From IMG/VR virus record IMGVR_UViG_3300042503_002084: DNA of 20,000 nucleotides; one strand, 5' to 3'. Position 1 is the first letter of the stretch. Each line of letters starts with the position of its first letter. Origin of the DNA: an uncultured virus (IMG/VR IMGVR_UViG_3300042503_002084). Taxonomy: Duplodnaviria > Heunggongvirae > Uroviricota > Caudoviricetes. The notes under the pieces were generated by a model. That model saw only the letters and a list, made by a program, of their open reading frames with translations, did no database searches and had not been told where the DNA came from. A program made the translations under genes and the position numbers. Shown in pieces: positions 4,469-19,973 of this stretch.

Positions 4469-4469
4469 T

Positions 4470-5565: not shown

Positions 5566-5569
5566 TCTT

Positions 5570-6859: not shown

Positions 6860-6867
6860 ATCACACA

Positions 6868-6874: not shown

Positions 6875-6878
6875 CTAC

Positions 6879-7571
6879 ATGAAAGTAGAAGCATTATTTA
6901 TTTCCGATGTTCATCTCGGGTCCAAAGGATCAAACGCCGAAGGCGTTCTGGCGTTATTAAAGCGGTACGAACCGCAAACATTATTCCTTGTGGGGGATAT
7001 AATTGACGGCTGGCTTTTAAAAAGAAAGTTCCGTTGGCCCCAATCACACACGAATGTCATCAGGAAAATTCTCTCCTATTCCAAAAATAACACTAAGGTA
7101 ATATACATTCCGGGGAACCACGACGAGTTCTTAAGGGATTATATTGAATATCATTTTGGGAATCTGGAGGTGCATAATGAGTACATCTGGAAGGATACAT
7201 TCATAACCCACGGGGATTTATATGATGGTGTGGTTAAACTAAAGTGGTTGGGCGTCCTTGGAAGCATTGGATATGATATGGCCATCTCCATTGACCGGAC
7301 CTTAAAATCGCTGGGGATGAAACGCTCTTTATCTAAATTCTTAAAGAATAAGGTAAAGGAAGCGGTAAAGTTTATCACGTCTTTTGAGCACGAACTAATC
7401 CGCCAGGCGAAGAAACATAATTGCACCAATGTTATATGTGGTCACATTCATCACCCAGAGGATAGAATGATAGATGGTGTCAGATATCTAAATTCCGGGG
7501 ACTGGATTGAAAATAACTCCTATATTATATACAACGAAGGAAAATATCAATTACATGAATATAAAGGATAA
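6879..7571 (+). CDS. LpxH-like (UDP-2,3-diacylglucosamine hydrolase family) metallophosphoesterase
   Basis: All five calcineurin-like motifs: SDVHLG, GDIID, GNHD, HGD, GHIH; also NSGDW. Start moved to 6879. Confidence 0.9.
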   Translation: MKVEALFISDVHLGSKGSNAEGVLALLKRYEPQTLFLVGDIIDGWLLKRKFRWPQSHTNVIRKILSYSKNNTKVIYIPGNHDEFLRDYIEYHFGNLEVHNEYIWKDTFITHGDLYDGVVKLKWLGVLGSIGYDMAISIDRTLKSLGMKRSLSKFLKNKVKEAVKFITSFEHELIRQAKKHNCTNVICGHIHHPEDRMIDGVRYLNSGDWIENNSYIIYNEGKYQLHEYKG

Positions 7572-8277
7572 ACTTACCATAGTAATTCCTTGTAGGAATG
7601 AAGAAAAGTATATAGAAAGAACAATAACTTCCATAGTAAAGCAATATGGTATAAAAGGTACTAGAGTAATAATAGCAGATGCTAACTCTACAGATAATAC
7701 TAGAAGTATAGTAGAATATCTCAAGAACACCTATAGGGATATTATCAACATAGAACTTATAGATGGAGGAAAGGTAGCGTATGGTAGAAATAAAGGTTCA
7801 GAACTTGTAAGTACCAAGTATATCTTATTCATGGATGCAGATGTGGTATTGTTAAATGAAAGGATAATAGATAGTAGTGTATATAGAATGCAGCATGAAC
7901 ATCTAGATTTAATGACTAGTAAGATAAAGTCCTTAGGTAAGGATATACGAACAGCACTAATATTTCACCTATTCAATCCCCTCAATAGGTTGATCTCCAT
8001 AAAGACCCCCTTCGCAATTGGGACTTTCTTCTTAACCAAAACAGACGAATTCAGAAATAGAAATGGGTTCGATGAAACCCTGCAACACTCAGAGGACTAT
8101 GCACTATCTAGAACTTATAATCCTAGTAAGTTTAGAATATCGAAATACTATGTCGGTCAAGACGATAGAAGGTTTAAAAAGATGGGCTATATAGGAATGC
8201 TTAAACTAGTCATCCAGAATTATCTCCATAGGAATGATATAGAACACTACAGAAAAGACGTTAAGTACTGGGACTAA
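7555..8277 (+). CDS. Glycosyltransferase family 2
   Basis: IVIPCRNEE, DANSTD, GRNKG, FMDAD, GFDE..SED and RRF motifs. Start moved to 7555. Confidence 0.9.
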   Translation: MNIKDKLTIVIPCRNEEKYIERTITSIVKQYGIKGTRVIIADANSTDNTRSIVEYLKNTYRDIINIELIDGGKVAYGRNKGSELVSTKYILFMDADVVLLNERIIDSSVYRMQHEHLDLMTSKIKSLGKDIRTALIFHLFNPLNRLISIKTPFAIGTFFLTKTDEFRNRNGFDETLQHSEDYALSRTYNPSKFRISKYYVGQDDRRFKKMGYIGMLKLVIQNYLHRNDIEHYRKDVKYWD

Positions 8278-8504
8278 ACTTCCGACTTTGGCTCCGTTTT
8301 ACTTCCGAGTTTGGCGTTCCTTCGGGTCTCATTTCGGGTCAAGCGAGGCCAACCGCCAGGTTGGGCGAGCGATTAATTACTAGATAAAAACACCCCTAAA
8401 AAAGTCCCGTTTTTAGTGCTAATATCCGTACCTTTTTATCGTATGCGTATTTGACACCTAAATGTATGACAGAATGTCCATTTTTCCGCCTAGATGTATT
8501 ACAA

Positions 8505-8513
8505 TGTGGAAAA
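8505..8513 (-). promoter_or_regulatory. DnaA box (TTTTCCACA)
   Basis: Matches TTWTNCACA on the - strand. Confidence 0.4.
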
Positions 8514-8698
8514 GTGGGAAAAAATGTTAATAAGTGGGAACTCCCTGGGGATTGACCCTTGACCGACTCACGACCACATTTTCTAAAAATTTTTGTAATA
8601 CCACGAAAATCAAGAATTAATTCCCCTCGCCGCCCCATAAAGGGGGTCGGCTCGGTGGCGCCCGTCATACGAAGTCCTAGTCATACAGCCAAATAAAG

Positions 8699-8707
8699 TT
8701 ATCCACA
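8699..8707 (+). promoter_or_regulatory. DnaA box (TTATCCACA)
   Basis: Perfect consensus; overlaps the palindrome CCACATATGTGG at 8703-8714. Confidence 0.5.
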
Positions 8708-8926
8708 TATGTGGGTCATACACCCGGGTCAAGCGAGGCCCGAAGGGCCGAGCGTAATACTTGCTCCTTTATAAAGTAATACGCTCGCCAGACCTTGCGG
8801 TCCGCCTCGCTCAGGTCCCGGACTTAGTTGCGGTCATACAGGGCGCACTAAAAACCCGGCCTTTCTGGACCGGGTCATACGAGCCCCGAAGGGGCGAGTA
8901 CTTGCTCTATATAATGTCATACGGAA

Positions 8927-9898
8927 TTAATCCTCATCCATAACATACGTACTGGTTCCCCAGTTACCTATACTTGTTGGTTGTCCATCTACCGTAAGTG
9001 ATACAATGATCTTGCGAAGATCTACTGGCGATTGCTCGAAGAAGTCAACAATGGGTTTGGCCATGGCGTTTATTAATACACTACCTAAACCCATAAAAAG
9101 ATTTTTTTCACGAGGTCCTAAATCGTTGTCACTGTCTGACACTACCCTACCCTTTGAAACTGGGTGCTCCCCATCCATGAATAGATTTATTCTTATGTTG
9201 TATTTGGCGGATAGTTCGTTGGCTTTAAAGTGAACCGCTTTGTCTGGGTAACAACGAACGGTATAAGTTAATGGAGGGATCTTGTTTACCCTGCTAGCGC
9301 CAGCAACTCTTATTAACCTCCTCATCTCACCGAAGTAACCATTCCTGGTATCGTCATCCTCCATGTTTTTAAACACTGGTCCGTCCAGGTCCAGGGAAAT
9401 GGTCATCTCCTGGTTCACCTTATTGAAGTAATCAGTGTAACGTTCCAGTTTATTGAACTTCCTTTCATTGCCGGCTATGAATGCGTCCAGGTCAAACCTC
9501 TTTATGCCCTGAAGGCCCGCCGCTACGTTGTCAAATGATATGATCGTCTTAGAAGCGTTCGTCAGATTAGCGAAGTTGATCTCATGACCATATGAGTCGA
9601 TCCAGATCTTGTTCACCAGAACCTTGACTGGTTCTTTATAGTTGCGAAGCATGATCTTAATCCTGGTGATCGCGTAGTCCAGGAGATCCTTATCAATATA
9701 TGACGGTTCATTCAAGATGGTAAGGATTACCCCGCTGGCGAGAGTGCTGTTGGTGGCTGATGACATCCCATCTGCGAAAGATACGAAAATCCTGTATTTA
9801 TAGTGGCCGTCTTCGAAGACCTTTCCACGAGTTTCTCTGTCAAGTACTGCCGCTGCTTCTGCAGCAGTAATGTTGGTTTTAAAATCGTCTGTGCTCAT
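8927..9898 (-). CDS. Hypothetical protein (~323 aa)
   Basis: Long ORF; ATG 9898 preferred because TATTTAT (9912-9906) overlaps ATG 9907. Confidence 0.8.
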   Translation of the reverse strand: MSTDDFKTNITAAEAAAVLDRETRGKVFEDGHYKYRIFVSFADGMSSATNSTLASGVILTILNEPSYIDKDLLDYAITRIKIMLRNYKEPVKVLVNKIWIDSYGHEINFANLTNASKTIISFDNVAAGLQGIKRFDLDAFIAGNERKFNKLERYTDYFNKVNQEMTISLDLDGPVFKNMEDDDTRNGYFGEMRRLIRVAGASRVNKIPPLTYTVRCYPDKAVHFKANELSAKYNIRINLFMDGEHPVSKGRVVSDSDNDLGPREKNLFMGLGSVLINAMAKPIVDFFEQSPVDLRKIIVSLTVDGQPTSIGNWGTSTYVMDED

Positions 9899-9924
9899 AG
9901 TATACATAAATAGTTGTTATCAAA

Positions 9925-9987
9925 TGTTCCGCACGTACCTGAAGTGCCGGTTGTTCCACTAGTTCCGGTTGTTCCCCTGGTACCGGA
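9925..9987. repeat. Seven degenerate 9-bp tandem units with GTNCC core
   Basis: TGTTCCGCA CGTACCTGA AGTGCCGGT TGTTCCACT AGTTCCGGT TGTTCCCCT GGTACCGGA. Confidence 0.65.
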
Positions 9988-9989
9988 TT

Positions 9990-10023
9990 AAAAAAAGGGA
10001 GCCCAGTGCGACCTGAACCCCCT
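9990..10023 (-). terminator. Rho-independent terminator
   Basis: AGGGGGTTCAG-gtcgca-CTGGGCTCCCT then a T run on the - strand. Confidence 0.75.
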
Positions 10024-10054
10024 AAACTAAACTAAAGCAAAAACGAAGATCGAA

Positions 10055-10234
10055 TTACTTTCCGAGAATCTGATTACGGTACTGAACCGCCTTTCTCTTA
10101 GAAGTTAGATTCTTAGAGTAGCGTGTGCCATTCTTGATTACTCGTACGCGGTACGATGTACCGTCGAAATAGATGTTCGGGCCTACAGATTCGTAAACCG
10201 TGGTGCGACTTTGGGTCATTTTTTTTGTTGCCAT
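10055..10234 (-). CDS. Small basic AP2/integrase-arm-like DNA-binding protein (59 aa; not in ORF track)
   Basis: MATKKMTQSRTTVYESVGPNIYFDGTSYRVRVIKNGTRYSKNLTSKRKAVQYRNQILGK; has its own leader (AACAATCATG), promoter and terminator. Confidence 0.7.
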   Translation of the reverse strand: MATKKMTQSRTTVYESVGPNIYFDGTSYRVRVIKNGTRYSKNLTSKRKAVQYRNQILGK

Positions 10235-10254
10235 GATTGTTAATTTTTATATAC

Positions 10255-10286
10255 CTAATATACAAAAACTAATTGGCATAGTCAAG
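10255..10286 (-). promoter_or_regulatory. Bacteroidota-type promoter
   Basis: CTTG-N20-TATATTAG upstream of ATG 10234. Confidence 0.45.
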
Positions 10287-10317
10287 TCCCTGATGCAAAA
10301 TAAAACGGCACATGTGC

Positions 10318-10455
10318 CTATAGCGCATCTGGAGGATACCAGTCGTTCCAGTCGTACTCAGTGTAAGTCAACTCTTTAGACGGCTCGGGGATACACTTGT
10401 GCCGCCTAGTAAATTTGTTAAAGATCTTTTTTAGCCGGGTCAGTAGGGCTTTCAT
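10318..10455 (-). CDS. Small hypothetical protein (45 aa; not in ORF track)
   Basis: MKALLTRLKKIFNKF...TEYDWNDWYPPDAL; A-rich leader. Confidence 0.5.
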   Translation of the reverse strand: MKALLTRLKKIFNKFTRRHKCIPEPSKELTYTEYDWNDWYPPDAL

Positions 10456-10479
10456 ATTGATGGGTTTTTGTTTGCTGTC

Positions 10480-10797
10480 TCATCGGGACGTCTCCAATTC
10501 AAACTGGTGACCCAACAGTATATCTTTTATATGGGCCAGTTCATAGATGGTCAATCTCTCCAGTTGAACCTCTTCACCTGTAGTGTCATACGAATCATAA
10601 ATTACCGTTCCATCCTGCTTGAGGTCCTTGGCTGCGTATGACGCAAATATTTCAACATCTATAATCTCCTCCAGCAATGTAATACCAAACGGGCTGTTGA
10701 ATAGTAATACACTGTCTGGCGGGTATGACGAGAGTATCTCTCGAATGTCCTTGACTATTTTTTCCTGCAGGTCCTGCACTTCTTGCTTCGCTGACAT
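10480..10797 (-). CDS. Hypothetical protein
   Basis: 105-aa acidic ORF. Confidence 0.75.
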   Translation of the reverse strand: MSAKQEVQDLQEKIVKDIREILSSYPPDSVLLFNSPFGITLLEEIIDVEIFASYAAKDLKQDGTVIYDSYDTTGEEVQLERLTIYELAHIKDILLGHQFELETSR

Positions 10798-10803
10798 AAT
10801 TAA

Positions 10804-11079
10804 TTATTTTAAAAGTAATGATTGTATGGATTTAGCGTCCTGTTTTGTGAAATTTTCGGCAATCAGTATTACATTACCGAAATGATAGAAGATCATAGTG
10901 CTGCTAATGATCTGGTTATCGATCAGCATCCTGATCTCCTCCTTAGGGATCTTGAGCGTACTGAACCTGATCAGGTTATCGTTTCGTCTCTTCCAGGTGA
11001 AGTACTTGTCATCCACAGTTATAATATCAGGGGTCAGCACTGAGCCGCCCCTGGTTATTGATGATTTAAATGTTGGCAT
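10804..11079 (-). CDS. Hypothetical protein, possibly bacterial PH-like domain
   Basis: 91 aa; beta-rich pattern with a C-terminal helix (FTKQDAKSIQSLL). Confidence 0.6.
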   Translation of the reverse strand: MPTFKSSITRGGSVLTPDIITVDDKYFTWKRRNDNLIRFSTLKIPKEEIRMLIDNQIISSTMIFYHFGNVILIAENFTKQDAKSIQSLLLK

Positions 11080-11096
11080 AAAAAAAATTTAGGTTT

Positions 11097-11128
11097 GCAA
11101 ATTACAAATCATTTCTTGATATCACAAA
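11097..11128 (-). promoter_or_regulatory. Repeated early promoter, class 1 (embedded in the 3' end of GP88)
   Basis: TTTG-TGATATCAAGAAATGATTTG-TAATTTGC; its TAA is the GP88 stop codon. Confidence 0.7.
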
Positions 11129-11857
11129 ATTATTCTTTTCTAATTTATTACGGACCTTCTTATACTTGAGTCCGACGATCACATTACCTGGATCAACATA
11201 TCGCATGTCATATGCATCCCCGTCGATAACTTCGCGGCCCCAGAAGTGAGTGGGTACCTCTTCGAACACTACAGCCAGGCGGATGTTTTGTTCCAGGGCT
11301 AGCATTGCTTTATCTAGATTCCTGCCACTGTAAGAAAAAGTTAGATCATAGTTAGGATATTTCTGGATCAATTCAAACCTGCGATCCACCTTAGTGTAAT
11401 CATAGAACTGTAGATCCGGAAAGATCTGAAGTATATTCTTTCCGCCGGCGTGAAACTGTTCAGGGCTTAGATCACTAGTTCCGTTGAGACGAACACTAAA
11501 TGTCATACCTGCAGCGATCGCCTTTGCATGGGCTGCCTGGATCTCATCGATAAGCCAGGCCATAAAGAAATTACGCTCTTCGAAGAATAGTTTCGTCTTC
11601 TTGATCCTGGCGGCGTTGATCGTGTTCTTATGGATGTCGATCCTATTGTGACCTGATTCATTTAAACAGGCCCGCGTGCATTCAGCGCTGCGCATCGGAC
11701 AAACTTCGTACCCGCTGCTGTCGGCCGGCGCCAGGTACAGGATATATGTGGCCTCATTATATTTTAAACCCTTAGCCATTTTAGACGAAGTCGCAACCCC
11801 GCCTAGGTATGACAAACCAGTTAATTTTTTTGCTTGTGCTCTGTTAGTGTACTGCAT
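11102..11857 (-). CDS. GP88-family (phage gene product 88, radical-SAM-like fold) protein
   Basis: LYLAP, CP.....C...CL...G, RLNGTSD, FYDYTK, YDLTFS and IDGD..D.R..D motifs. Confidence 0.85.
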   Translation of the reverse strand: MQYTNRAQAKKLTGLSYLGGVATSSKMAKGLKYNEATYILYLAPADSSGYEVCPMRSAECTRACLNESGHNRIDIHKNTINAARIKKTKLFFEERNFFMAWLIDEIQAAHAKAIAAGMTFSVRLNGTSDLSPEQFHAGGKNILQIFPDLQFYDYTKVDRRFELIQKYPNYDLTFSYSGRNLDKAMLALEQNIRLAVVFEEVPTHFWGREVIDGDAYDMRYVDPGNVIVGLKYKKVRNKLEKNNFVISRNDL

Positions 11858-11881
11858 GATGTTTAAGTTTAGTTTAAGAAT

Positions 11882-11926
11882 GCAAGTTAAGAATAATTCT
11901 TGATATCACAAAAAAAATGATGTTAA
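11882..11926 (-). promoter_or_regulatory. Repeated early promoter, class 1, with upstream TTAACA box
   Basis: TTTG-TGATATCAAGAATTATTCT-TAACTTGC (19-nt spacer). Confidence 0.8.
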
Positions 11927-11955
11927 AAAAACCAGGGACATATTTCAGCCCCTGG
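11925..11955 (-). terminator. Rho-independent terminator
   Basis: CCAGGGGC-N8-GTCCCTGG then T7. Confidence 0.75.
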
Positions 11956-11975
11956 GAACTCTACTAAACATCAAC

Positions 11976-12527
11976 CTAAGAACTAACAACCAAAGATTCT
12001 AAAAATTCTTTTTGAGTATTTGTAATCCCGAAATCAATACTGATTCCAACGATCTTATTTTTATCTTTAAGAACATACACTGCGTACATCCCATCGCCTA
12101 TTCCGCTGCTGCTGACGATGCCTCCGTCATACGAACCCCAGCCCTTACCTCCTAGTGTGAACTTACACATCTTAGTGTACCAATCATCACCGTCTTGGCG
12201 TATAGGTAATACGAAGTCAATCTCAGGACTTTCGATCTCCTCTGCTACGGCGTCGTTTCTGTATGACGCCATATCAAAGATTCCTGCTTGACCCGAATCC
12301 ACGCCAATGTCGGACAGAGCGTACCATCTTTTATTTTTTCCAACATAGTTCTCGTGTATTACTACGAGGGACATAATCCTTTGACCCCATTCCCCTAAAT
12401 CCTGGCGGTTCGCATTCGCCAGGTAGGTTCCAGGTAATACATTACTAACCTTGGTTTGACACCAGGTACCAATTGAGTAGCAAGGATCGCTGATCATTAC
12501 TTCTCCTGATAATTTAATTTTGTTCAT
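11976..12527 (-). CDS. DUF4241-like protein
   Basis: ISDPCY, GVDSGQAGIFD and SSGIGDGMY motifs. Confidence 0.75.
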   Translation of the reverse strand: MNKIKLSGEVMISDPCYSIGTWCQTKVSNVLPGTYLANANRQDLGEWGQRIMSLVVIHENYVGKNKRWYALSDIGVDSGQAGIFDMASYRNDAVAEEIESPEIDFVLPIRQDGDDWYTKMCKFTLGGKGWGSYDGGIVSSSGIGDGMYAVYVLKDKNKIVGISIDFGITNTQKEFLESLVVSS

Positions 12528-12545
12528 TTTGCTTTAATTTAGTTA

Positions 12546-12576
12546 CAAAGTTAAGAATAATTCTTGATATCCTAAA
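12546..12576 (-). promoter_or_regulatory. Repeated early promoter, class 1
   Basis: TTTA-GGATATCAAGAATTATTCT-TAACTTTG. Confidence 0.8.
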
Positions 12577-12760
12577 AATTTTTATGGAAGTAAATGTCTT
12601 CGTTCACCTCTTTAAGATTAAAATCCTCAGCCAGTTCTTTGAGTAATTTAATCTGGTCGTGGGCCGAATGAGGAGTCGCAGGTCCTATGCCGGTGTCACG
12701 GAGGAATTCTAGATGGCTGATCTTTGCCTCCACCCAGAGTTTTAACATTAGTGGGTTCAT
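12572..12760 (-). CDS. Hypothetical protein
   Basis: 62-aa ORF. Confidence 0.65.
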   Translation of the reverse strand: MNPLMLKLWVEAKISHLEFLRDTGIGPATPHSAHDQIKLLKELAEDFNLKEVNEDIYFHKNF

Positions 12761-12771
12761 AGTATTGGGGT

Positions 12772-13116
12772 TTAAAAGTGCTCTGTTCCAGAATGTTCTT
12801 CGGTTCTCACATACCAGTAATTGTCCAGAGTGGTAATATAATTGTCTAGGTCCAGTTTAACGGTGCCGGTACTCCCCTCATCATTGAAGTTTGGATTACC
12901 AGATTTATCAAACACTTCAAAACAATAATCCTCAATTAAAGATTGTATAGTGCCGTGTTCGGTTTTAATTTCTTTTTTGTCTTTATCATATACTTCTATT
13001 GAATAAAAGTCATCAAACGCATCGCCAGAACCAGAGTAACTAATTTCAATTATTGATGCTTCTGGTAAGTGTTTTTTTAATTGTTCGTAGGTCTGTTTTT
13101 TTAAAGATTCGCTCAT
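12772..13116 (-). CDS. DUF6878-like protein
   Basis: YSGSGD and NDEGSTGTV motifs; adjacent to a DUF6915-like gene, its usual partner. Confidence 0.6.
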   Translation of the reverse strand: MSESLKKQTYEQLKKHLPEASIIEISYSGSGDAFDDFYSIEVYDKDKKEIKTEHGTIQSLIEDYCFEVFDKSGNPNFNDEGSTGTVKLDLDNYITTLDNYWYVRTEEHSGTEHF

Positions 13117-13134
13117 TTTATTTAGATTTAAAGG

Positions 13135-13554
13135 TTAGTCAACATAAATTGTTTTTCTTTTCTCCATCTCTCCTGCTATAATCCCATCAGGGAAGCGCAA
13201 CTTGGCGGAAGCAGGTGGTTCTCCTAAACCATTGTTCATCCAAGATTTAAGTTGCAGGTTCTCCAACCAGTCCTGCGGAGTAGGAATATATTTCATATGG
13301 TAATCTTCAAGAATGTGAAGTTCGCAGATATTTTTAACATCTACCTGCTTCCCGCTGGAATTTGTTATTTGTTCACCAAAGAGCGGGATAATAACTTCAA
13401 AGATAAAGAACATATTGTGTGTTAGCAATCTGTGTCTGTTATCTGGAAAATACTTCTTGCTGCAATCCATCTTGCTGTGGATTGCTATATAATCTTCTGG
13501 TGCACCACCCCAGCGCTTTGCTGATGATTCTGCGTGGATTCTTGGACTGGACAT
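13135..13554 (-). CDS. DUF6915-like protein
   Basis: HAESSAKRWGG..EDY..IH..MD.SK, RHR.L.H and E.HI.ED....IPT..DWL motifs. Confidence 0.8.
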   Translation of the reverse strand: MSSPRIHAESSAKRWGGAPEDYIAIHSKMDCSKKYFPDNRHRLLTHNMFFIFEVIIPLFGEQITNSSGKQVDVKNICELHILEDYHMKYIPTPQDWLENLQLKSWMNNGLGEPPASAKLRFPDGIIAGEMEKRKTIYVD

Positions 13555-13570
13555 ACTAGTAAAGTTTTTG

Positions 13571-13602
13571 TGAAGTTAAGAATGTTTCTTGATATCAAGA
13601 AA
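13571..13602 (-). promoter_or_regulatory. Repeated early promoter, class 1, with perfect 18-bp palindrome
   Basis: TTTCTTGATATCAAGAAA at 13585-13602; -7 element TAACTTCA. Confidence 0.75.
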
Positions 13603-13861
13603 AAATAATTTTATCATATGCATCCGTGTCGATCTCATCCTGATCATTTAATATAACATCCTGCCCTTCTTCTGCCAGGTTACTGGGAAGATACCCAGCA
13701 CCATCTAGTATTTCTTCCGCCGTGATGGTGAAGGTTCCTTCATTCTTTAACTCGGATAATATTCCGTAATTATGTACAAAATCTTTACAGATGTCGTAAT
13801 CAAAGAACCATTCAATAAATGCTTCCCTGTTAATCTTTAAGGTTGGTTTTTTCTTTGCCAT
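13595..13861 (-). CDS. Hypothetical acidic protein
   Basis: 88-aa ORF. Confidence 0.75.
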   Translation of the reverse strand: MAKKKPTLKINREAFIEWFFDYDICKDFVHNYGILSELKNEGTFTITAEEILDGAGYLPSNLAEEGQDVILNDQDEIDTDAYDKIIFS

Positions 13862-13916
13862 GATTGTTTAGTTTAGTTAGTTATTATTTGTACCTGGTGA
13901 GGTAGCCAGGTAAAGG

Positions 13917-14696
13917 TTATCCAGACCAATACATATAGAACTCCTGTGGGTTCTCGTGTGCCAGAATAAACTCAATCGTTTCCTGTACAACTTCTAACGC
14001 CTGTATGTAATACCTCACACCACTTTCATTTTTATATACCACATATGTACAAGGTCTTTCACCCATCATTGTTTCGATACCTGGAATTAAGGCCACAACT
14101 TTAATAGGTTCACCCATGTGGAACTCACCGTTGATATTGCTATAAGAATTAAAACCACTATGTGTTTCCAATTCATTTTCAAATATACGGAGTGCTTCCG
14201 CCGATGAGGATACATTAGGTTTACTGAATAAGTTACCAGAAGCGGTTAGAACCTGATAACCATTATCCCTTCTTAATTCCGCCAGAACTTCTTTCACATT
14301 TATTAACGCCTGTTCATAATTTGGCGAAACTTCACCACCATCTTCGATTTCAAATATTTCAAACAGGGTTGGTAAACCTTTGTTTTCGAGTATCCTGTTA
14401 ATACCAGAACCATTGTATGACGACCTGAAATAACCAATCTGGAAGTTATGGTCAGGATGTAAATCACTAGGTAGTTCTATCTTTTTCTTATAGGTAATAT
14501 CTTCACCGTAATCACCCAACCCCAATTCGTTGGCTTTGATATTAAGTTTGTTCCTGATTGCAATTTTATCATCTTCGGGAACATCTTCATACTTTCTATT
14601 ACCCCACAGTTGGTCGGAGTATTCTTCATACATCTTTTCGTTTGCTTTTGATTTCTTGTAGTCCGTAATACGGTACAAATAAACATCTAGTCCCAT
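13917..14696 (-). CDS. Phage hypothetical protein (MGLDxY...WS family)
   Basis: 259 aa; N-terminal MGLDVYLY and GYFR motifs; ends YMYWSG. Confidence 0.8.
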   Translation of the reverse strand: MGLDVYLYRITDYKKSKANEKMYEEYSDQLWGNRKYEDVPEDDKIAIRNKLNIKANELGLGDYGEDITYKKKIELPSDLHPDHNFQIGYFRSSYNGSGINRILENKGLPTLFEIFEIEDGGEVSPNYEQALINVKEVLAELRRDNGYQVLTASGNLFSKPNVSSSAEALRIFENELETHSGFNSYSNINGEFHMGEPIKVVALIPGIETMMGERPCTYVVYKNESGVRYYIQALEVVQETIEFILAHENPQEFYMYWSG

Positions 14697-14719
14697 GATT
14701 GTAAAGTTTAGTTAGGTGT

Positions 14720-14750
14720 GCAAATTAATAATAATTCTTGATATTCCAAA
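14720..14750 (-). promoter_or_regulatory. Repeated early promoter, class 1
   Basis: TTTG-GAATATCAAGAATTATTAT-TAATTTGC (19-nt spacer). Confidence 0.8.
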
Positions 14751-14760
14751 AGTTTTTTTA

Positions 14761-14790
14761 ATCCCCGCCGCAGGTTACCACAGCGGGGAT
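14761..14790 (-). terminator. Intergenic stem-loop (terminator or stabiliser)
   Basis: ATCCCCGCTGTGG-taac-CTGCGGCGGGGAT with G-U pairs on the - strand; no adjacent U run. Confidence 0.5.
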
Positions 14791-14795
14791 ATATT

Positions 14796-15110
14796 TTATA
14801 CTCTTTCCAGTTTGAAGAATATAGGTTTGATCTTTTTTAGATCAGTTACCGCTGAGGCGTTCTCACCTTCCGGCGTGCTGCCAAAGATAATCCCGCTGCC
14901 CATGTACTCTCTATTGAACAGCGTGAAACCAAGTTCTGTCCCGTTAATTAATCCTTCCTCATCCACATACATGGTATCGCCGGTTTCTTGATCATAGTGG
15001 CCAACTTCGATCATTTCCACATTCAATGAACGGTAGATCCCATCAAGATCACCTTTGTGTTGTATTTCTGTAACTGTATGATTTACAGCGTCTATTAATA
15101 TTGCTCTCAT
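14796..15110 (-). CDS. DUF3846-like protein
   Basis: YVDEEGL motif and G.GII.G....GE. Confidence 0.75.
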   Translation of the reverse strand: MRAILIDAVNHTVTEIQHKGDLDGIYRSLNVEMIEVGHYDQETGDTMYVDEEGLINGTELGFTLFNREYMGSGIIFGSTPEGENASAVTDLKKIKPIFFKLERV

Positions 15111-15115
15111 GTTTT

Positions 15116-15376
15116 TTAAATTACTGGTAAAATATAATTGTTATCACCTTCTTTGCTGTAATGTAAAGATCCTGCATCATTGCCCTCATCATCTGCTGAT
15201 GGGTACAGTAAAGTATTATCATCTAGTTGGATCACTAGGGCTTTACTGTAAAAGCCAAGATCTTCCTGCTCGCTGTCTAGCATATAACGAACTTTAACAA
15301 TCTTGCGATTAAGTAAAACGCTTTCTGCTTTTTTAACCCACTTGTCTAAAATTGGGTCATGTTTTTCTGCTGCCAT
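15116..15376 (-). CDS. Phage hypothetical protein
   Basis: PSADDEGNDAGSL motif. Confidence 0.75.
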   Translation of the reverse strand: MAAEKHDPILDKWVKKAESVLLNRKIVKVRYMLDSEQEDLGFYSKALVIQLDDNTLLYPSADDEGNDAGSLHYSKEGDNNYILPVI

Positions 15377-15381
15377 GATTT

Positions 15382-15813
15382 TTAGTTTTGATAGTTTAGT
15401 AATTCGTTATATTCATTAGTTATGAAATGGTTTGCTTCTGTTGGCCAATTCTCAACTACGAAAGAAATATTAGTTCCATATAATTCGCCATCTTCAATAA
15501 ACACTTCTGCTTCTAATCCACCACTAGAATGTGATACAGTTCTATTATCGTTGGTTGGGTCTTTTTGTTGAAGCAATTCAAGTGCTTCTATCATAGCACC
15601 TTCTAAAAGTTCATATGCTTTATCTTTTAGTTCTTCTTGTGATGGTGAACTATCTGCGCCATCCCATGTCCAATCTAGGAACTCCATTACTTTTTGTACT
15701 TTGTCCCATTCCATCCATGCAATGTTTTCAGCAATCAATTCGGTTGGTGTTTTCTTACGATTAACAAAATCGTGTATGACACTTTTCTGTTTGGTTGTTT
15801 TTTTCTTTGCCAT
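15382..15813 (-). CDS. Phage hypothetical protein
   Basis: KV..VM.FLDW.W and SSGGL motifs. Confidence 0.75.
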   Translation of the reverse strand: MAKKKTTKQKSVIHDFVNRKKTPTELIAENIAWMEWDKVQKVMEFLDWTWDGADSSPSQEELKDKAYELLEGAMIEALELLQQKDPTNDNRTVSHSSGGLEAEVFIEDGELYGTNISFVVENWPTEANHFITNEYNELLNYQN

Positions 15814-15831
15814 AGTTTAAAGTTTAGATAG

Positions 15832-15887
15832 CGAAGTTAAGAATATTTCTTGATACCAAGAAAATGTTTTGTTAAATGTTTGTTAAA
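15832..15887 (-). promoter_or_regulatory. Repeated early promoter, class 1, with two TTTAACA boxes
   Basis: TTCTTGGTATCAAGAAATATTCT-TAACTTCG; boxes at 15870 and 15881. Confidence 0.75.
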
Positions 15888-16045
15888 GTACTTTGCTCGT
15901 TCAGGAAATCCTGACCTACATCTTCGGGTAGATATGCTAGTAATACATCGTGGGGAACCTGGTCTAACATTGTTTCCAGGGGTTCGTAATTTCCGATCGA
16001 GAAATCCACCTTAATGGTTTCGATTACCAATTCAGTAAGTGACAT
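15872..16045 (-). CDS. Hypothetical protein (57 aa; not in ORF track)
   Basis: MSLTELVIETIKVDFSIGNYEPLETMLDQVPHDVLLAYLPEDVGQDFLNEQSTLTNI. Confidence 0.65.
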   Translation of the reverse strand: MSLTELVIETIKVDFSIGNYEPLETMLDQVPHDVLLAYLPEDVGQDFLNEQSTLTNI

Positions 16046-16230
16046 ATGTCTTTTTTTAATTGTTTGAAAATATTGGTTGTAGGTTGGTTGTAGGTAATAA
16101 CATTACCCTCGTAATACCTCATGGGTTCTACATATGCGCTAGACACTTTGTATTCTTTAACCCACTCATTACAATCCGGTCTGTCCGCCGGAGCCGGTAA
16201 AGTTCTTTGGATGTTTAATTTCTTTTCCAT
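16024..16230 (-). CDS. Hypothetical protein
   Basis: 68-aa ORF. Confidence 0.65.
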   Translation of the reverse strand: MEKKLNIQRTLPAPADRPDCNEWVKEYKVSSAYVEPMRYYEGNVITYNQPTTNIFKQLKKDICHLLNW

Positions 16231-16241
16231 TTGATTAAATT

Positions 16242-16499
16242 TTAATTAACGTGAAAAAATCTTTTAGCGATAGAGAACATTTTTAAATGTTTAATGCATT
16301 CATCATCGGCTCTACTTATGGCTTCATCTAAATCATTATTCACGATTGCTTGAACGAATGAACCACCTTGTAGTTCGTTGTCCCTAGTTAACATTATGGA
16401 AGCCATAACATGAATGATGTGCGATGATAGGTTTTTACCTTCTGTGTATCTTTCTGCGTTCTCTTTGGCTGCTGCCATGTACTTTTCAATAATAGTCAT
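16242..16499 (-). CDS. Phage hypothetical protein
   Basis: GGSFVQAIVNNDL..AI.RAD motif. Confidence 0.75.
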   Translation of the reverse strand: MTIIEKYMAAAKENAERYTEGKNLSSHIIHVMASIMLTRDNELQGGSFVQAIVNNDLDEAISRADDECIKHLKMFSIAKRFFHVN

Positions 16500-16546
16500 G
16501 ATATAAATTTTTGTAAAATTAAAAAACGATTTCTAAATGTTTTGTT

Positions 16547-16578
16547 AAAATGAGCAGCGGGTGTTACCCCGCCGCCCG
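16547..16578 (-). terminator. Rho-independent terminator
   Basis: GGGCGGCGGG-gtaaca-CCCGCTGCTC then ATTTT. Confidence 0.6.
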
Positions 16579-16583
16579 ATTAA

Positions 16584-16958
16584 TTAATCTGCTTCCACTT
16601 CTTGCGGCTGTCCGATGCGATCTTTGTACGCAGCGTACACCTGATCGATTCTGTCCCGCGTCTGTCTTACGAGGTCGCGGGTGTCCACTTCAACGTTGAT
16701 CGTTTTGTTGTAGTCCAGATCCAGTTCTGTTGCACCGTCGTAGTCATACGATTCGATCTCATCACGAACTTCATCTGTGATCTCTTTGATGAATGCATCT
16801 AGTGATCCGCTGTCGATCGCCGCATCTGGTATCGCTGCGATGTTGCCGGCCAGTTCCGTTAGAACCTGTAATACGTCTTGTTTGCTGTACAGGGATGGGA
16901 ATGAATTTTCTACATCATTGATCCTCCTGTTAAATAATTCTGCGATTTGCTGTTTCAT
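16584..16958 (-). CDS. Hypothetical acidic protein
   Basis: 124 aa; GC- and GATC-rich relative to neighbours. Confidence 0.8.
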   Translation of the reverse strand: MKQQIAELFNRRINDVENSFPSLYSKQDVLQVLTELAGNIAAIPDAAIDSGSLDAFIKEITDEVRDEIESYDYDGATELDLDYNKTINVEVDTRDLVRQTRDRIDQVYAAYKDRIGQPQEVEAD

Positions 16959-16978
16959 GTTCCGTTTTTTTAATAATG

Positions 16979-17039
16979 AATAATAGAATACAAATGTCGT
17001 AAGTTTAATAATACGAAGTTGTTAAGGAGTTGTTAAAGT
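16979..17039 (-). repeat. 61-bp promoter repeat, class 2, copy 1
   Basis: 58/61 identical to 17549-17609; contains a -7-like GACATTTG and phased TTAACA boxes. Confidence 0.85.
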
Positions 17040-17041
17040 CG

Positions 17042-17260
17042 TTACCATTCTTTAACAGATTTAACAACGTCGTTCCAGACCTGACAGCCCTTCTCGACTT
17101 CCTCACCTTCCCCATCAGTAATCTGGAATTCTGGAACATAGAATAAATTATCTTGTCCTTCGGTATGTGTGTCCTTGTTCCAGACAACACTATAAGTTTC
17201 TTCACCATCGGTGACATTAAATAATAATGTCACCAGTTCATCTAAATAAATTGCTTTCAT
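17042..17260 (-). CDS. Hypothetical protein
   Basis: Start moved to ATG 17260 (MKAIYLD). Confidence 0.7.
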
Positions 17261-17264
17261 ATTA

Positions 17265-17528
17265 TTATGGTTTATTTGTCCATACAATTACGTCTGTGTT
17301 ATCAACGTAAACTTCCTCCGTTGGTTCGCCTCCGTTTTCATCAGGGCTAATTTGTTCAGCAGTTTCAAACATAGTTTCCCAGTCGTCGCTTAATACGTCG
17401 CTACTATTGGTATTACACATCTCAATTACTTTCGCCTTTGCTTCTTCCAAAGTTTTGGCTTCAATAGTAAAATTGTTTCTATACCAAATGGTATGTTTTT
17501 GGTCGAGGTGAAATTCAAATTCTGCCAT
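17265..17528 (-). CDS. Hypothetical acidic protein
   Basis: 87 aa; [10 protein letters not shown] motif (weak DpnD/PcfM-like resemblance). Confidence 0.75.
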
Positions 17529-17548
17529 TGTTATTGTTTTTAGGTTTT

Positions 17549-17609
17549 AATAATAGAATACAAATGTCGGAAGTTAAGTAATACGAAGTTGTTAAGGAGT
17601 TGTTAAAGT
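17549..17609 (-). repeat. 61-bp promoter repeat, class 2, copy 2
   Basis: Direct repeat of 16979-17039 at a 570-bp offset. Confidence 0.85.
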
Positions 17610-17610
17610 G

Positions 17611-18006
17611 TTAAAGGTCTTTTGTGCAAAATTTTCTTAATTTATACCTGAACTCATCGTGCATACCATCTAGGTCATACACTTTTTTTGTTTCATCCAC
17701 ATTACCATCTTTATCTTCTGGATGGTAATACGCCACATCTACTTCAATCGTGTCAGTTAATTTATCTTCATCTGTCACCTCCAAGATATCCTGAACATCA
17801 AATCCTTTATATTCAAGATACTTAAATAATTTTTTACTACTTAACATGATTTCTTCTTTGGTTGCAAACGGGTTATCATTACCTTCCTCCCATGTGTCAT
17901 ACCATTGGGTTACTGCCATATTTTTTAAACCATTTAAAGTCCAGTAGGATATGTCGGATAACGTATCGTTCATATCAGTCATCTTATAAATTTTAATCGG
18001 GTGCAT
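17611..18006 (-). CDS. Hypothetical acidic protein
   Basis: 131-aa ORF between class 2 repeats. Confidence 0.7.
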   Translation of the reverse strand: MHPIKIYKMTDMNDTLSDISYWTLNGLKNMAVTQWYDTWEEGNDNPFATKEEIMLSSKKLFKYLEYKGFDVQDILEVTDEDKLTDTIEVDVAYYHPEDKDGNVDETKKVYDLDGMHDEFRYKLRKFCTKDL

Positions 18007-18010
18007 TGTG

Positions 18011-18057
18011 CAAAGTTTATTTATTAAGTAATACGAAGTTGTTAAGGGGTTGTTAAG
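18011..18057 (-). repeat. Promoter repeat, class 2, partial copy 3
   Basis: 18024-18057 matches 17574-17607 at 32/34; -7-like AAACTTTG at the same offset. Confidence 0.8.
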
Positions 18058-18767
18058 GTTTCTTCTTTCTTCTTTTTTTCTTCTGCTATTTTGTCGAGTT
18101 CATCTTTACGATATTCATCATACATCTTGATAATCTCTTGGATATCTTTATCGCTACAATATGAATAATCCGTTTTTATCTGTTCAATGGCATCATCATA
18201 GTTCTCCTCATCATCATCCGTTGTAATACCATAATCTTCCCACAAACTTTCTATTTGCCACACCAAGTAGCCCTCCCAGAAATAATCTTCATTATAAGTG
18301 TATTGTCCCTCACCAAAATCCAATGAATCGTGTATTACCCATTCTCCATCTATACACTTACCCTTGAAGTAAAAATCATTACCACCTTCTTCCGAATCCA
18401 TTTCAACTTCAACACCATATTCTTTGGTGAAGTTTTCAATAAACTCTTTGGGTGGTGACCACGCAGTATCGAAGTGTGCACTGAATCCTGCTTCCTCGCC
18501 ATCCTGCCAATCATCTAACGAACCCAAGAAATCATCTTTACTAATATCCCATTTAGTACCGAACCTACTAATGTTATGGTTGTACCATTCACCACCATCA
18601 TACTTGTCCCTATCTATGTTACCAAGTCCGATAAGTTCCTCGAAAACACCAATTCTTGTATTTTCTTTCACCTCATCAAATTGGATTAAGTTTACTTTGG
18701 TAAGTATTAAATCTATAATCCCTTTCTTACCCGTAACAACGATTGAATTTGAACACCAATTAGGCAT
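18042..18767 (-). CDS. DUF1281/YubB (Api92-like) ferredoxin-like domain protein with acidic tail
   Basis: MPNWCSN, WY......FGTKWD and FDTAWSPP motifs. Confidence 0.85.
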   Translation of the reverse strand: MPNWCSNSIVVTGKKGIIDLILTKVNLIQFDEVKENTRIGVFEELIGLGNIDRDKYDGGEWYNHNISRFGTKWDISKDDFLGSLDDWQDGEEAGFSAHFDTAWSPPKEFIENFTKEYGVEVEMDSEEGGNDFYFKGKCIDGEWVIHDSLDFGEGQYTYNEDYFWEGYLVWQIESLWEDYGITTDDDEENYDDAIEQIKTDYSYCSDKDIQEIIKMYDEYRKDELDKIAEEKKKKEETLTTP

Positions 18768-18781
18768 AGTGATAATTTTTA

Positions 18782-18813
18782 TGAAGTTAAAAATAATTTA
18801 TTAATGTAACAAA
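18782..18813 (-). promoter_or_regulatory. Bacteroidota-type promoter
   Basis: TTTG-N20-TAACTTCA. Confidence 0.6.
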
Positions 18814-18814
18814 A

Positions 18815-19261
18815 TTATTTAGGATTTGTTACAGATATAAAATTCACCAGAATATCCTTGCAAGAATCCGAAACGTAGTCCTCTTTTACCATCGTCTCTG
18901 CAACAGAATAGATATATGAATCGTCCAGTAGTGCTTCCCATACCAGACCTGATATGTCGCGATAATTTTCTCTGGCGTAATCATATAGGTTCAGGTTCAC
19001 GCCGTCTGGTACAAATAGTCCAGTATCGCCATAGTCACCAGCAATTACTATCTGGTCACCAGCCCACGAACCGACCACTTGTTTATCGCTGGTCAAATCA
19101 CCACCACCCCTTCCATTGCCAGACGCCAGAAGGATAGATAACCCCATCATAGAACCATATCGACCAGTTCCGAATTCCAGTAACTTTGCACCCTCACTAA
19201 AAGAATGTGGATGGATAAATTCACCTTTGGTAATGTTTACCAGTTTGTAGTATTGTCCCAT
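18815..19261 (-). CDS. Conserved phage hypothetical protein (MGQYY family)
   Basis: MGQYY, GAKLLE, GRGGGD and GSWAGD.IV..GDY motifs. Confidence 0.85.
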   Translation of the reverse strand: MGQYYKLVNITKGEFIHPHSFSEGAKLLEFGTGRYGSMMGLSILLASGNGRGGGDLTSDKQVVGSWAGDQIVIAGDYGDTGLFVPDGVNLNLYDYARENYRDISGLVWEALLDDSYIYSVAETMVKEDYVSDSCKDILVNFISVTNPK

Positions 19262-19280
19262 AGTTGTAAAGTTTAGACAG

Positions 19281-19337
19281 CAAAAATAAAATTAATTCTT
19301 GAAACCAAGAAAGTTGAAATGTTAAAATGCTGTTAAA
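19281..19337 (-). promoter_or_regulatory. Repeated early promoter, class 1 variant, with two TTTAACA boxes
   Basis: TTCTTGGTTTCAAGAATTAATTT-TATTTTTG; boxes at 19320 and 19331. Confidence 0.75.
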
Positions 19338-19374
19338 ACCATCCAGCCAGAATTCCTGCGGGACACCTGGGCTG

Positions 19375-19424
19375 GATCTGGTTCTAGATCTTCCCTGTGA
19401 TCTGGTCTGGATCACCTGCGGATC
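19375..19424. repeat. Five helically phased GATC sites in a GC-rich intergenic island
   Basis: GATC at 19375, 19387, 19399, 19410, 19421. Confidence 0.7.
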
Positions 19425-19487
19425 TGGCGAGCCGGGCCGGCCGGGCCTGAACAGGGAATACCTCCCAGGGTACAGAATACCAGGCAC

Positions 19488-19514
19488 AAAAAAACCCCTG
19501 GACGAATCCAGGGG
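19488..19514 (-). terminator. Rho-independent terminator
   Basis: CCCCTGGA-ttcg-TCCAGGGG then T7. Confidence 0.85.
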
Positions 19515-19538
19515 CCTGACACCAGCAAAACGGAATAA

Positions 19539-19913
19539 CTAACCCATCATTCCTTTTATCTTATGGACATTGCTAACAACCTTCTGCCCTTTTACTTTAT
19601 AGTTTTGATAACCGATAACGAATGAATCCGAATCCTTACCAATGAAGCAAAGACCTTCAACTTTCATACCATCATAGTTTACCTTCAACTTACGCATAAA
19701 GTCGTTGAAAGATAACTCTAACTTTTTACCAATCTTATCTGTTTTAGGGATTGGTGCATTCTCGATTCTATATGAAGTTCCGATTCGTGAGAATCTTAAT
19801 CTGTAAACAGATTTGTTAGTATCCTTCACAATAGATTCATCTAAACATTGTCTCATTTCGCCTAGCGATTTCTTTATAGATTCCGCAGTGGTCTTTCGTG
19901 GTTTTTGTACCAT
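19539..19913 (-). CDS. Hypothetical basic protein
   Basis: Start moved to ATG 19913 because 19943 lies within the promoter. Confidence 0.7.
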   Translation of the reverse strand: MVQKPRKTTAESIKKSLGEMRQCLDESIVKDTNKSVYRLRFSRIGTSYRIENAPIPKTDKIGKKLELSFNDFMRKLKVNYDGMKVEGLCFIGKDSDSFVIGYQNYKVKGQKVVSNVHKIKGMMG

Positions 19914-19942
19914 ATTGTTTTTATGTTTATGATTAAACATCA

Positions 19943-19973
19943 CAAAAGTAACATATGTTGATAACTTTACAAA
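19943..19973 (-). promoter_or_regulatory. Bacteroidota-type promoter, perfect consensus
   Basis: TTTG-N19-TACTTTTG. Confidence 0.75.

Follow-up and report, generated by a model that had tools for sequence, protein, structure and literature searches.

Why should a single seven-letter word be packed into one part of a phage genome and be missing from the DNA directly beside it? The question is raised by a 20,000-nt stretch of DNA from an uncultured virus of the Caudoviricetes (IMG/VR record IMGVR_UViG_3300042503_002084), here called the window. The two gene arms of the window converge on a 649-nt non-coding junction (8278-8926), and a first-pass annotation had noticed that the heptamer GTMATAC, which reads GTATKAC on the opposite strand, marks this junction and the right arm while sparing the left. 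We find that the heptamer is kept at the DNA level against protein-coding constraint and that, in related giant phages, it fills one gene block whose end lies next to the gene of a small basic protein. Tentatively, we propose that the heptamers are the binding sites of this protein of about 60 residues and mark a separately controlled domain of ~30 kb, most likely through orientation-dependent silencing or insulation; binding, binding as a monomer and the effect on transcription are the parts of this proposal that we infer.

Exact matching on both strands yielded 40 copies of GTMATAC in the window, 21 of them GTAATAC and 19 GTCATAC, all within 8464-18338. The 40 positions in the first-pass annotation were reproduced exactly, none of them left of 8464 or in the gene at 8927-9907. 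The sites form two groups:

8464..8922, both orientations: terminal array of 11 GTMATAC sites, 2 reverse and 9 forward, inside the 649-nt non-coding junction
10585..18338, both orientations: 29 dispersed exact GTMATAC matches, 27 in coding sequence and 2 intergenic (17578 and 18028)

Three parts of the window hold no copy at all, namely 1-8463, 8923-10584, which includes the gene at 8927-9907, and 18339-20000. When the window was shuffled 200 times with dinucleotides preserved, the mean count was 5.33 (standard deviation 2.36, maximum 13), and 40 was reached in none of the shuffles. Every one-mismatch variant of the heptamer occurred only 0-3 times in the window, and none was enriched.

By our open reading frame (ORF) calls, 27 of the 40 sites are coding. 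They occupy all three codon phases, and some of them use the codons ATA, TCG and GCG. We then exchanged codons among positions for the same amino acid, a shuffle that keeps both the proteins and the codon usage intact. The number of coding sites fell from 27 to a mean of 4.03 when codons were pooled over genes and of 4.64 when they were exchanged within a gene; the maximum over 500 shuffles was 12, and 27 was reached in none. The word is therefore selected at the DNA level, in agreement with the earlier view of a DNA signal rather than a peptide motif and with the enrichment over codon-preserving shuffles that the first-pass annotation had proposed to look for.

Relatives of the locus were collected through homologues of the GP88 protein encoded in the right arm, which has thousands of relatives, 29 of which were aligned (alignment A1). 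GP88-anchored loci were taken from species genomes (18), metagenomes (80) and IMG/VR (80), and their ORFs are simple longest-ATG calls. Many of the IMG/VR records with related loci are 100-410 kb long. The most informative genome, G006, comprises 310,542 bp, is rated 100% complete and encodes terminase, portal, tail sheath, baseplate wedge, DNA polymerase, a DnaB-like helicase, a UvsX-like recombinase and ribonucleotide reductase, a gene set which identifies these elements, a freshwater lineage, as jumbo myoviruses. Expected counts in what follows are derived from first-order composition, and many of the loci are related to each other, so that locus counts are not counts of independent events. 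In most loci with a GP88 homologue 56-97% identical to that of the window, and also in locus L008 (46%), GTMATAC reaches 1.2-3.5 copies per kb, about ten times the expectation. The heptamer is not enriched in other relatives or in distant proteobacterial and firmicute loci, and the motif-poor relatives contain no other hyper-abundant word of comparable strength that would take its part. The megaphage LR756502.1, which gave the best match to the DUF6915 protein of the window, was set aside, with 2 sites in 20 kb and no enrichment.

In G006 the sites are concentrated in a single block: 44 of 100 lie in 231,855-261,345, which is exactly a 30-kb block of minus-strand genes. The remaining 56 are scattered over 281 kb, at ~0.2 per kb, a density similar to that of the reversed word used as control. 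Contig C207 of genome G001 (44.5 kb) follows the same pattern: its first 15.8 kb have a single site, and the next 27 kb, which coincide with a unidirectional block, have 43. Confinement to one genome segment and uneven density along a genome, both foreseen in the first-pass annotation, thus extend to a complete genome and to a second contig.

Every long locus ends its block in the same way, with a burst of sites and none after it. Among 62 IMG/VR loci found through an independent anchor, the small protein described below, 59 have sites across the 10 kb upstream, 2-12 sites within ~2 kb from the small-protein gene, and then zero. The density peak that had been noted at the junction of the window therefore recurs well beyond it. 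For the DNA past the burst, 59 loci (58 anchored loci and the window) were collapsed at 90% identity to 37 clusters; in these 37 non-redundant loci, 316,403 nt contained 0 sites against 92 expected. In G006, 2 sites are found in the next 26 kb past the burst. Exclusion of the word from the adjoining DNA is thus as clear as its enrichment in the block, and the window shows one end of such a marked block. The burst usually occupies a non-coding gap between convergent blocks, and in many relatives its first sites lie less than 1 kb past the start of the small-protein gene.

Could the pattern be devoid of function and stem instead from composition, from codon use, from amino-acid motifs or from chimeric assembly? 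The two arms of the window do differ in guanine-plus-cytosine (GC) content, and they differ in contig depth as well. Window DNA is present in lake-water metagenome runs, with no RNA data set among the runs listed, and in near-identical contigs from four runs the right arm (8552-20000) has 1.4-2.5 times the depth of the left arm (1-8277). None of the listed pieces spans 8314-8495, and in one run a loose end at 8314 continues into other sequence. We nevertheless reject a chimera: the glycosyltransferase and metallophosphoesterase genes that end the left arm also lie beyond the junction in loci L050 and L084, which tells us that the two arms of the window are truly contiguous, and the architecture recurs in dozens of independent assemblies. 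Strain variation in the left arm, or a block that is repeated, might account for the difference in depth. Composition fares no better, as neither the dinucleotide nor the synonymous shuffles ever reached the observed counts and all codon phases are used. The marked block of G006 has a GC content of 0.33-0.38 against 0.26-0.33 in most neighbouring bins, but only 3 sites were counted over the 20 kb of another GC-richer minus-strand region of this genome, at 290-310 kb. We exclude chance and composition and give a functionless pattern as a whole practically no credence.

The heptamer is not a palindrome, and its flanks contribute no symmetry either, so that each site is asymmetric and has a direction. 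In the window, GTATKAC lies on the sense (minus) strand of the right-arm genes in 28 of 40 cases. Along right-arm transcription the array begins with nine sense sites (from 8916 to 8595) and ends with two in the opposite orientation (8496 and 8464); of the dispersed sites, the 19 forward ones have GTATKAC on the sense strand and the 10 reverse ones are antisense. The 62 non-redundant motif-rich loci have 1628 sites in all, 1254 (77%) of them sense with respect to the block genes and 374 antisense. The last site of the burst is opposite in orientation in 15 of 37 loci, as in the window. Both orientations are enriched within the blocks (sense, 1228 against 86.6 expected; antisense, 366 against 79.3), which makes duplex DNA a likelier target of recognition than RNA or a transcript.

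Outside the seven letters little is fixed. Over the 1628 sites a pyrimidine precedes GTATKAC in 73% of cases and an A follows in 51%, and the other flanking positions are not conserved. The first-pass annotation had extended the strongest copies to GTMATACGAAGT; the four copies it listed are real, but the extension does not hold as a general consensus over the 1628 sites of the 62 loci, whose flanks are almost unconstrained, and it was dropped. No general preference for spacing or pairing was detected among the 1628 sites; the commonest short spacing is 19 bp, and one locus, L192, has an array with regular 19-bp spacing. The third position (M) is cytosine in a fraction of 0.16 to 0.70 of the sites, depending on the genome.

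How strongly are individual sites held? Of 1594 sites, 955 (60%) are in coding sequence, although coding sequence makes up 78% of the block, and they are spread evenly along genes and over all phases. In alignments of homologous DNA, sites were retained 2-2.7 times better than other 7-mers, in line with the conservation that the first-pass annotation had proposed to examine. At 80-85% alignment identity, 82% of sites were still a site, while 39% of other 7-mers were identical; at 75-80% the figures were 65% and 24%, and at 65-70% they were 23% and 10%. The pairs behind these values are not independent, and the identity control is slightly stricter than the site test. Single sites are thus under purifying selection. 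Low retention at 65-70% identity, despite a persisting density, and the 22 different positions that sites occupy among 157 distinct GP88 genes point to turnover alongside conservation: density is kept as much as position.

A short, exact, asymmetric and oriented word with its densest cluster at one boundary also resembles Chi, and the heptamer could accordingly be a host-directed signal, read by a host nuclease or another host factor and unrelated to the small protein. The hosts are probably Bacteroidota. Gene-upstream promoters in locus L055 fit the Bacteroidota type, by what we take to be the Bacteroidota promoter consensus, and metagenomic binning groups related contigs with genomes of Sediminibacterium and other Bacteroidetes. 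A 2025 paper describes freshwater jumbo phages, possibly of another lineage, with predicted Bacteroidota hosts (PMC12619734). Two metagenome-assembled genomes that hold related contigs are, as wholes, not enriched for the word (605 copies against 581 of the reversed word, and 814 against 684), with the reservation that such bins may not be true hosts. Moreover, only ~10% of the phage genome is marked, and the word co-occurs with a phage protein. A host-directed signal is, in our estimate, very improbable.

A further explanation would make the heptamer a modification target, the site of a phage DNA methyltransferase or of another base-modifying enzyme. A C5-cytosine methyltransferase is encoded in the block of several relatives, and both strands of the site end in AC. 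However, just 11 of 46 motif-rich loci have this methyltransferase family, the window has no member of it, and to our knowledge modification sites are not normally over-represented, strand-biased or cleared from neighbouring DNA. We regard this explanation as highly improbable.

Apart from the heptamer, some relatives carry second, lineage-specific hyper-abundant words (L055, L084/L088, L089, L085/L091, L049/L050/L090, L053 and L083). In L055 (1200-11000), CCCAGTA(A) occurs in 48 copies against 1 expected. Upstream of each Bacteroidota-type promoter, the intergenic region holds 3-5 of these copies, some of them in inverted pairs, which gives the word an operator-like look. The words of other relatives include TACTGGA, CCCGGTA, CCAGACA and GCCAAAC.

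The protein that might read the heptamer is encoded between the array and the dispersed sites of the window:

10055..10234, minus strand: 59-residue basic protein (family A3), candidate heptamer binder by adjacency, co-occurrence and predicted fold

Its gene has a 245-nt upstream region of its own with a sigma-70-like match, and in all loci at most one other gene lies between it and the burst that follows. The family emerged from clustering all ORFs of 46 motif-rich and 28 motif-poor loci, where it was found in 29 of the former and 0 of the latter; it is one of several families exclusive to the motif-rich set, which partly reflects clade structure. Among the others, Pfam identified no DNA-binding domain. 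In de-duplicated GP88-anchored loci of at least 6 kb, the family is present in all 21 motif-rich loci that cover the junction, in 19 of 35 that end short of it and in 0 of 64 motif-poor loci. Whole records gave a similar result, with 4 of 5 motif-rich and 0 of 4 motif-poor ones containing it, three of the latter being 100% complete. Among 1.84 billion proteins the family accounts for 128 representative clusters, almost all of which are stand-alone proteins of 50-115 residues.

An AlphaFold2 model built from 25 sequences (predicted local distance difference test score, pLDDT, 88) places strands at residues 15-18, 21-23, 28-34 and 37-43 and a helix at 46-57, in a predicted antiparallel sheet packed on the C-terminal helix. 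The conserved core includes invariant Arg, Tyr, Ser and Asn residues. The top Foldseek rows included an AP2 domain and the arm-type domains of HPI, P4-like and lambda integrases (template modelling, TM, score up to 0.53, E ~0.85-2), and AP2 and integrase arm-type domains were among the top structural matches of two aligners, at low scores. A neighbour cluster from a protein language model, 12% of whose members carry PF02920, scored 0.85 and is a lead only. The structural scores are too low to prove kinship, but they point one way. AP2 and arm-type domains read a short site in the major groove with their sheet, as single units, and by analogy such a mode of reading would suit an asymmetric 7-bp word. 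The proposal of the first-pass annotation that a protein marks this segment thus has a concrete candidate, linked to the word by its neighbouring gene, by co-occurrence and by a fold similarity of low score. Twelve Pfam families were matched, and helix-turn-helix families are not among them.

Some homologues (L085, L090, L091 and L096) carry Lys/Pro/Ala-rich N-terminal tails of 30-40 residues that are reminiscent of histone-H1-like DNA-compacting tails.

How might such a protein act? One molecule would bind each asymmetric GTATKAC through its small sheet-plus-helix domain. With sites on average every ~400 bp through a unidirectional accessory block of ~30 kb, a lattice of protein and sites would form, in which binding would be strongest at the array beside the protein's own gene. 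Once occupied, the lattice would put the block into a state unlike that of the rest of the genome. Transcription would be blocked or silenced in an orientation-dependent manner, shutting off the block after its phase of expression; the convergent boundary would be insulated and the transcription units kept apart, and the absence of the word from the flank would shield the neighbouring genes from the same silencing. We favour transcriptional control because the orientation of the sites follows transcription and tends to flip where the convergent unit arrives, and because the stoperators of mycobacteriophage L5, the only set of scattered, asymmetric and oriented sites in a phage that has been studied well, set a precedent. 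Of the roles considered in the first-pass annotation, stoperator-like silencing fits best, given asymmetric sites with an orientation tied to transcription, though most of the features that define stoperators fail here; partitioning and methylation are less favoured.

Several observations weigh against control of transcription by this protein. The 60% of sites within genes are evenly spread, while a pure roadblock would favour intergenic sites, and 23% of the sites are in the "wrong" orientation. The Lys/Pro/Ala-rich tails of some homologues suggest a general compaction of DNA. The gene set of G006 is lytic, with no sign of lysogeny, which makes an immunity repressor unlikely. The association of protein and word has gaps on both sides: the motif-rich genome G005 (50% complete, with a weaker burst) has no detectable homologue, and L245, L246 and L247 have distant homologues (43-47% identity) but no enrichment of the heptamer. 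Since motif-rich and motif-poor loci belong to different clades with many gene differences, the association is also partly phylogenetic. Searches for kinship were negative, as none of 25 members matched an AP2 or integrase DNA-binding family of Pfam at E up to 10, and a profile search of PDB sequences gave nothing significant. Finally, comparison by eye of the A/C preference at the M position with the small-protein sequences revealed no obvious matching change.

A coat or compaction variant is a better fit to the sites in genes, the mixed orientation, the tails and the lack of lysogeny. Here the 60-residue protein, in some lineages with a tail like that of histone H1, would nucleate on the boundary array and occupy the heptamer lattice in the coding sequence of one tenth of the genome, building a chromatin-like domain. 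Such a domain is possible, and we would call it doubtful.

A related idea is that of a domain organiser or centromere, in which the array nucleates and the dispersed sites allow the protein to bridge and compact the block; ParB/parS and MatP/matS are the models. The array adjoins the gene of the candidate binder, the distribution is specific to one region, some arrays have a regular 19-bp spacing (L192), and the Lys/Pro/Ala-rich tails would be in keeping with such a role. On the other hand, the annotated stretches contain no partition ATPase, the gene set is lytic, and bridging needs no orientation bias of 77%. A centromere-like organiser therefore seems improbable to us.

The junction itself brings two further explanations into play. 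It is rich in repeats, with 19 direct-repeat families and 16 inverted pairs in 8200-10600, many of them within the junction. By the DnaA-box consensus that we assumed, a perfect match lies inside the array (8699-8707, plus strand), and a looser one is found at 8505-8513 on the other strand. In relatives, DnaA boxes by a loose consensus number 0.69 per kb in bursts and 0.17 per kb elsewhere (~4-fold), and perfect boxes number 17 in 42 kb of bursts against 29 in 651 kb elsewhere (~9-fold); at least one box is found in the burst of only 17 of 37 loci.

The first of the two explanations is an entry control as in phage T5. The block would enter the cell first, the junction would be a stop or anchor signal that uses host DnaA, and a protein brought in by the virion or made very early would bind the heptamers and hold, protect or hand on this DNA. 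The proportions would agree, the block taking up ~30 kb of the 310 kb of G006 (9.7%) against 7.9% for T5, according to the available text of bioRxiv 10.1101/866236. The 649-nt non-coding junction has repeats, inverted repeats and a perfect DnaA box, related bursts are 4-9 times denser in DnaA boxes, and the genes of the block are small and of the accessory type. But the terminal repeat of G006 is a 99-nt overlap. DnaA boxes occur in fewer than half of the bursts and show no T5-like fixed set of eight, and the candidate binder, encoded inside the block, would have to be packaged or made at once. We judge entry control to be unlikely.

The second makes the junction a replication landmark, either a terminus with polar fork barriers or a DnaA origin, with heptamers that guide or bar a replisome or translocase; Ter/Tus and KOPS/FtsK are the models for such oriented words. 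In G006 the junction coincides with the global maximum of the cumulative GC skew, where a plus-strand region of 170 kb meets the minus-strand block, and both the flipped last site of 15 of 37 loci and the DnaA boxes enriched in bursts would be in keeping. Phage skew, however, follows the direction of transcription, so that the maximum is not independent evidence, and, apart from 0-2 at the array edge, no sites guide toward the junction from the other side. We know of no fork trap that resembles a set of tens of sites spread over 30 kb on a single side of a junction. A replication landmark is decidedly improbable.

We return to the window with the genes that surround the sites, which were assigned from ORF calls and Pfam matches:

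1..8277, plus strand: convergent, motif-free left arm, GC ~30-39%, 0 sites against 2.3 expected
6801-7571, plus strand: metallophosphoesterase by family match, near the end of the left arm
7507-8277, plus strand: family-2 glycosyltransferase by family match, last gene of the left arm
8927..19943, minus strand: part of the motif-marked, unidirectional block of small genes present in the window, GC 35-46%
8927..9907, minus strand: gene of a 326-residue protein of no known family and with only 4 homologue clusters, site-free, between the small-protein gene and the array
11858-11975, 12528-12571, 13555-13594, 14697-14795, 15814-15871 and 19262-19538, intergenic in the right arm: second repeated element

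The families recognised in the right arm are GP88, DUF4241, DUF6915, DUF3846 and DUF1281_C, and the block genes look accessory or early in function. The first-pass label of this arm as "early" would follow from gene content. In the motif-free left arm, a 216-residue protein (3096-3746, plus strand) matches Tad3, the family of Type I Thoeris inhibitors, in Pfam (E 9.5e-25) and is an anti-defence gene product. At the very start of the window (1-600, plus strand), a partial ORF with FG-GAP repeats and a weak match to the Pfam family TcdB_toxin_midN (E 3.7e-6) probably belongs to a large repeat-bearing structural or surface protein.

The second repeated element stands upstream of six right-arm genes. 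Its core, ATCAAGAA..ATTCTTAAC, is nearly palindromic and precedes CTAAACTTTA, which stands a few bases upstream of the ATG; the element is probably the promoter and leader of the block and is distinct from the heptamer. Upstream of the gene for the 326-residue protein lies a tandem repeat of 18 nt with a 9-nt sub-period (9943-9986), which in one frame encodes Gly-Thr-Ser/Thr triplets, differs in length between runs and has ~3 times the depth of its surroundings. The block also exists in a variant that lacks 3.6 kb: in contigs of two runs, 15886 is connected to 19479 through 31 unrelated letters.

The genes past the junction vary among the loci, with the glycosyltransferase and metallophosphoesterase shared by the window, L050 and L084. 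Phage CRISPR-Cas genes lie directly past the junction, on the convergent strand, in two others: Cas3 in G006 (226064-230285; L138) and Cas6 with Cas3 in contig C207 of G001 (9301-14977; L101), each accompanied by unassigned neighbouring genes. Elsewhere in G006 (10453-16290), the ORFs of the terminase large subunit (1001 residues) and the portal protein (924 residues) are unusually long and also match ribonucleotide-reductase-like and HNH-endonuclease families, which suggests that they carry inserted elements such as inteins or homing endonucleases.

Further searches with the window yielded little. An Rfam search of 8100-10600 gave no match, and no transfer RNA was found across the whole window. 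Against the phage collection, a near-identity search with 5000-13000 returned no close match and tblastn with the 326-residue protein returned nothing. In IMG/VR, single-protein scans with three window proteins found no relative, and an exact 27-nt pattern found no match. A literature search for GTMATAC, GTATKAC, GTAATAC and GTCATAC as words retrieved one unrelated hit, and searches on AP2 in phages and on jumbo-phage motifs showed nothing relevant to such a block among the matches listed.

The pattern points to an undescribed way of setting apart part of a phage genome. Dispersed, oriented sites for a phage regulator are of a known kind, and there is a real chance that the locus represents a new kind of genome compartmentalisation. 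Should the small protein read the heptamer, the three components, i.e., a 7-bp word that every reading frame can accommodate, a binder of ~60 residues and a boundary array, would make up a compact and portable system for marking DNA. It would also mean that selection can write a dense regulatory lattice into coding sequence over tens of kb and spare the adjacent genes. If the block were chromatin-like, a 30-kb set of accessory, anti-defence-type genes would be switched, shielded or insulated as one unit, and this would be a new viral genome compartmentalisation and no mere variant of repressor-operator control. Either way the locus offers an approach to the question of how expression or protection of the large sets of accessory and counter-defence genes is ordered in giant phages, and the signal is easily scored, so that it can serve as a marker for the block in metagenomes.

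How does the heptamer compare with systems already described? Short words that define a chromosomal domain or a direction are known from matS/MatP, KOPS/FtsK and Chi/RecBCD, all of them much sparser words of cellular chromosomes whose readers are large cellular machines. The heptamer reaches 1.5-3 copies per kb over a tenth of a phage genome, and its candidate binder is a tiny protein that the phage itself encodes nearby. Unlike Chi and KOPS, it is not enriched over a whole replicon (~0.2 per kb outside the block in G006), nor in the two bins with related contigs.

The predicted fold of the small protein, a small sheet on one helix, tentatively resembles that of AP2 domains and of the arm-type domains of tyrosine integrases (lambda, Tn916, HPI and P4-like; 3igm, 6sy0, 2gcc, 3jtz, 3rmp, 2wcc and 1bb8). 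Unlike these domains, the protein stands alone with 50-115 residues, is attached to neither a recombinase nor a nuclease, has no Pfam match and shows low fold scores.

The injection stop signal of T5 is described, in the accessible text of bioRxiv 10.1101/866236, as a large untranslated region of repeats, inverted repeats, palindromes and eight specifically arranged DnaA boxes in the long terminal repeat. The junction is like this region, as far as that text describes it, in being a long untranslated stretch of repeats and DnaA boxes at the edge of a small-gene block of ~8-10% of the genome. It differs in having one perfect and one looser DnaA box in the window instead of eight fixed ones, with any box at all in 17 of 37 related bursts. 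The main feature here, a heptamer dispersed through coding DNA, is not mentioned for T5 in the part of that preprint available to us.

The closest parallel is offered by the stoperators of cluster A mycobacteriophages (L5, TipsytheTRex), which the accessible text of PMC9283540 describes as dispersed, asymmetric 13-mers with an orientation strikingly correlated with transcription. In L5 they stop the elongating polymerase in an orientation-dependent manner, and their repressor, of ~183 residues with a helix-turn-helix and a stoperator domain, acts or is proposed to act as a monomer (PMC9283540, same text). The heptamer shares the asymmetric site, the many dispersed copies and the correlation of orientation with transcription; a monomeric binder and an effect on elongation as well as initiation would be further likenesses. 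There are also differences. The site has 7 bp instead of 13, and ~44 sites lie in one 30-kb block, compared with some twenty over a whole genome of 50 kb. Coding sequence holds 60% of the heptamers, whereas stoperators lie in promoters and short intergenic spaces, and the orientation is 77% uniform here and nearly complete there. The heptamer sites culminate in an array at the block's end and are missing from the DNA next to it, they occur in a phage with a lytic gene set, and their candidate binder is a 59-residue protein with a predicted sheet-plus-helix fold rather than a two-domain helix-turn-helix repressor of 183 residues. By analogy, the heptamer system appears to work most like the stoperators of L5, yet it is no member of that system.

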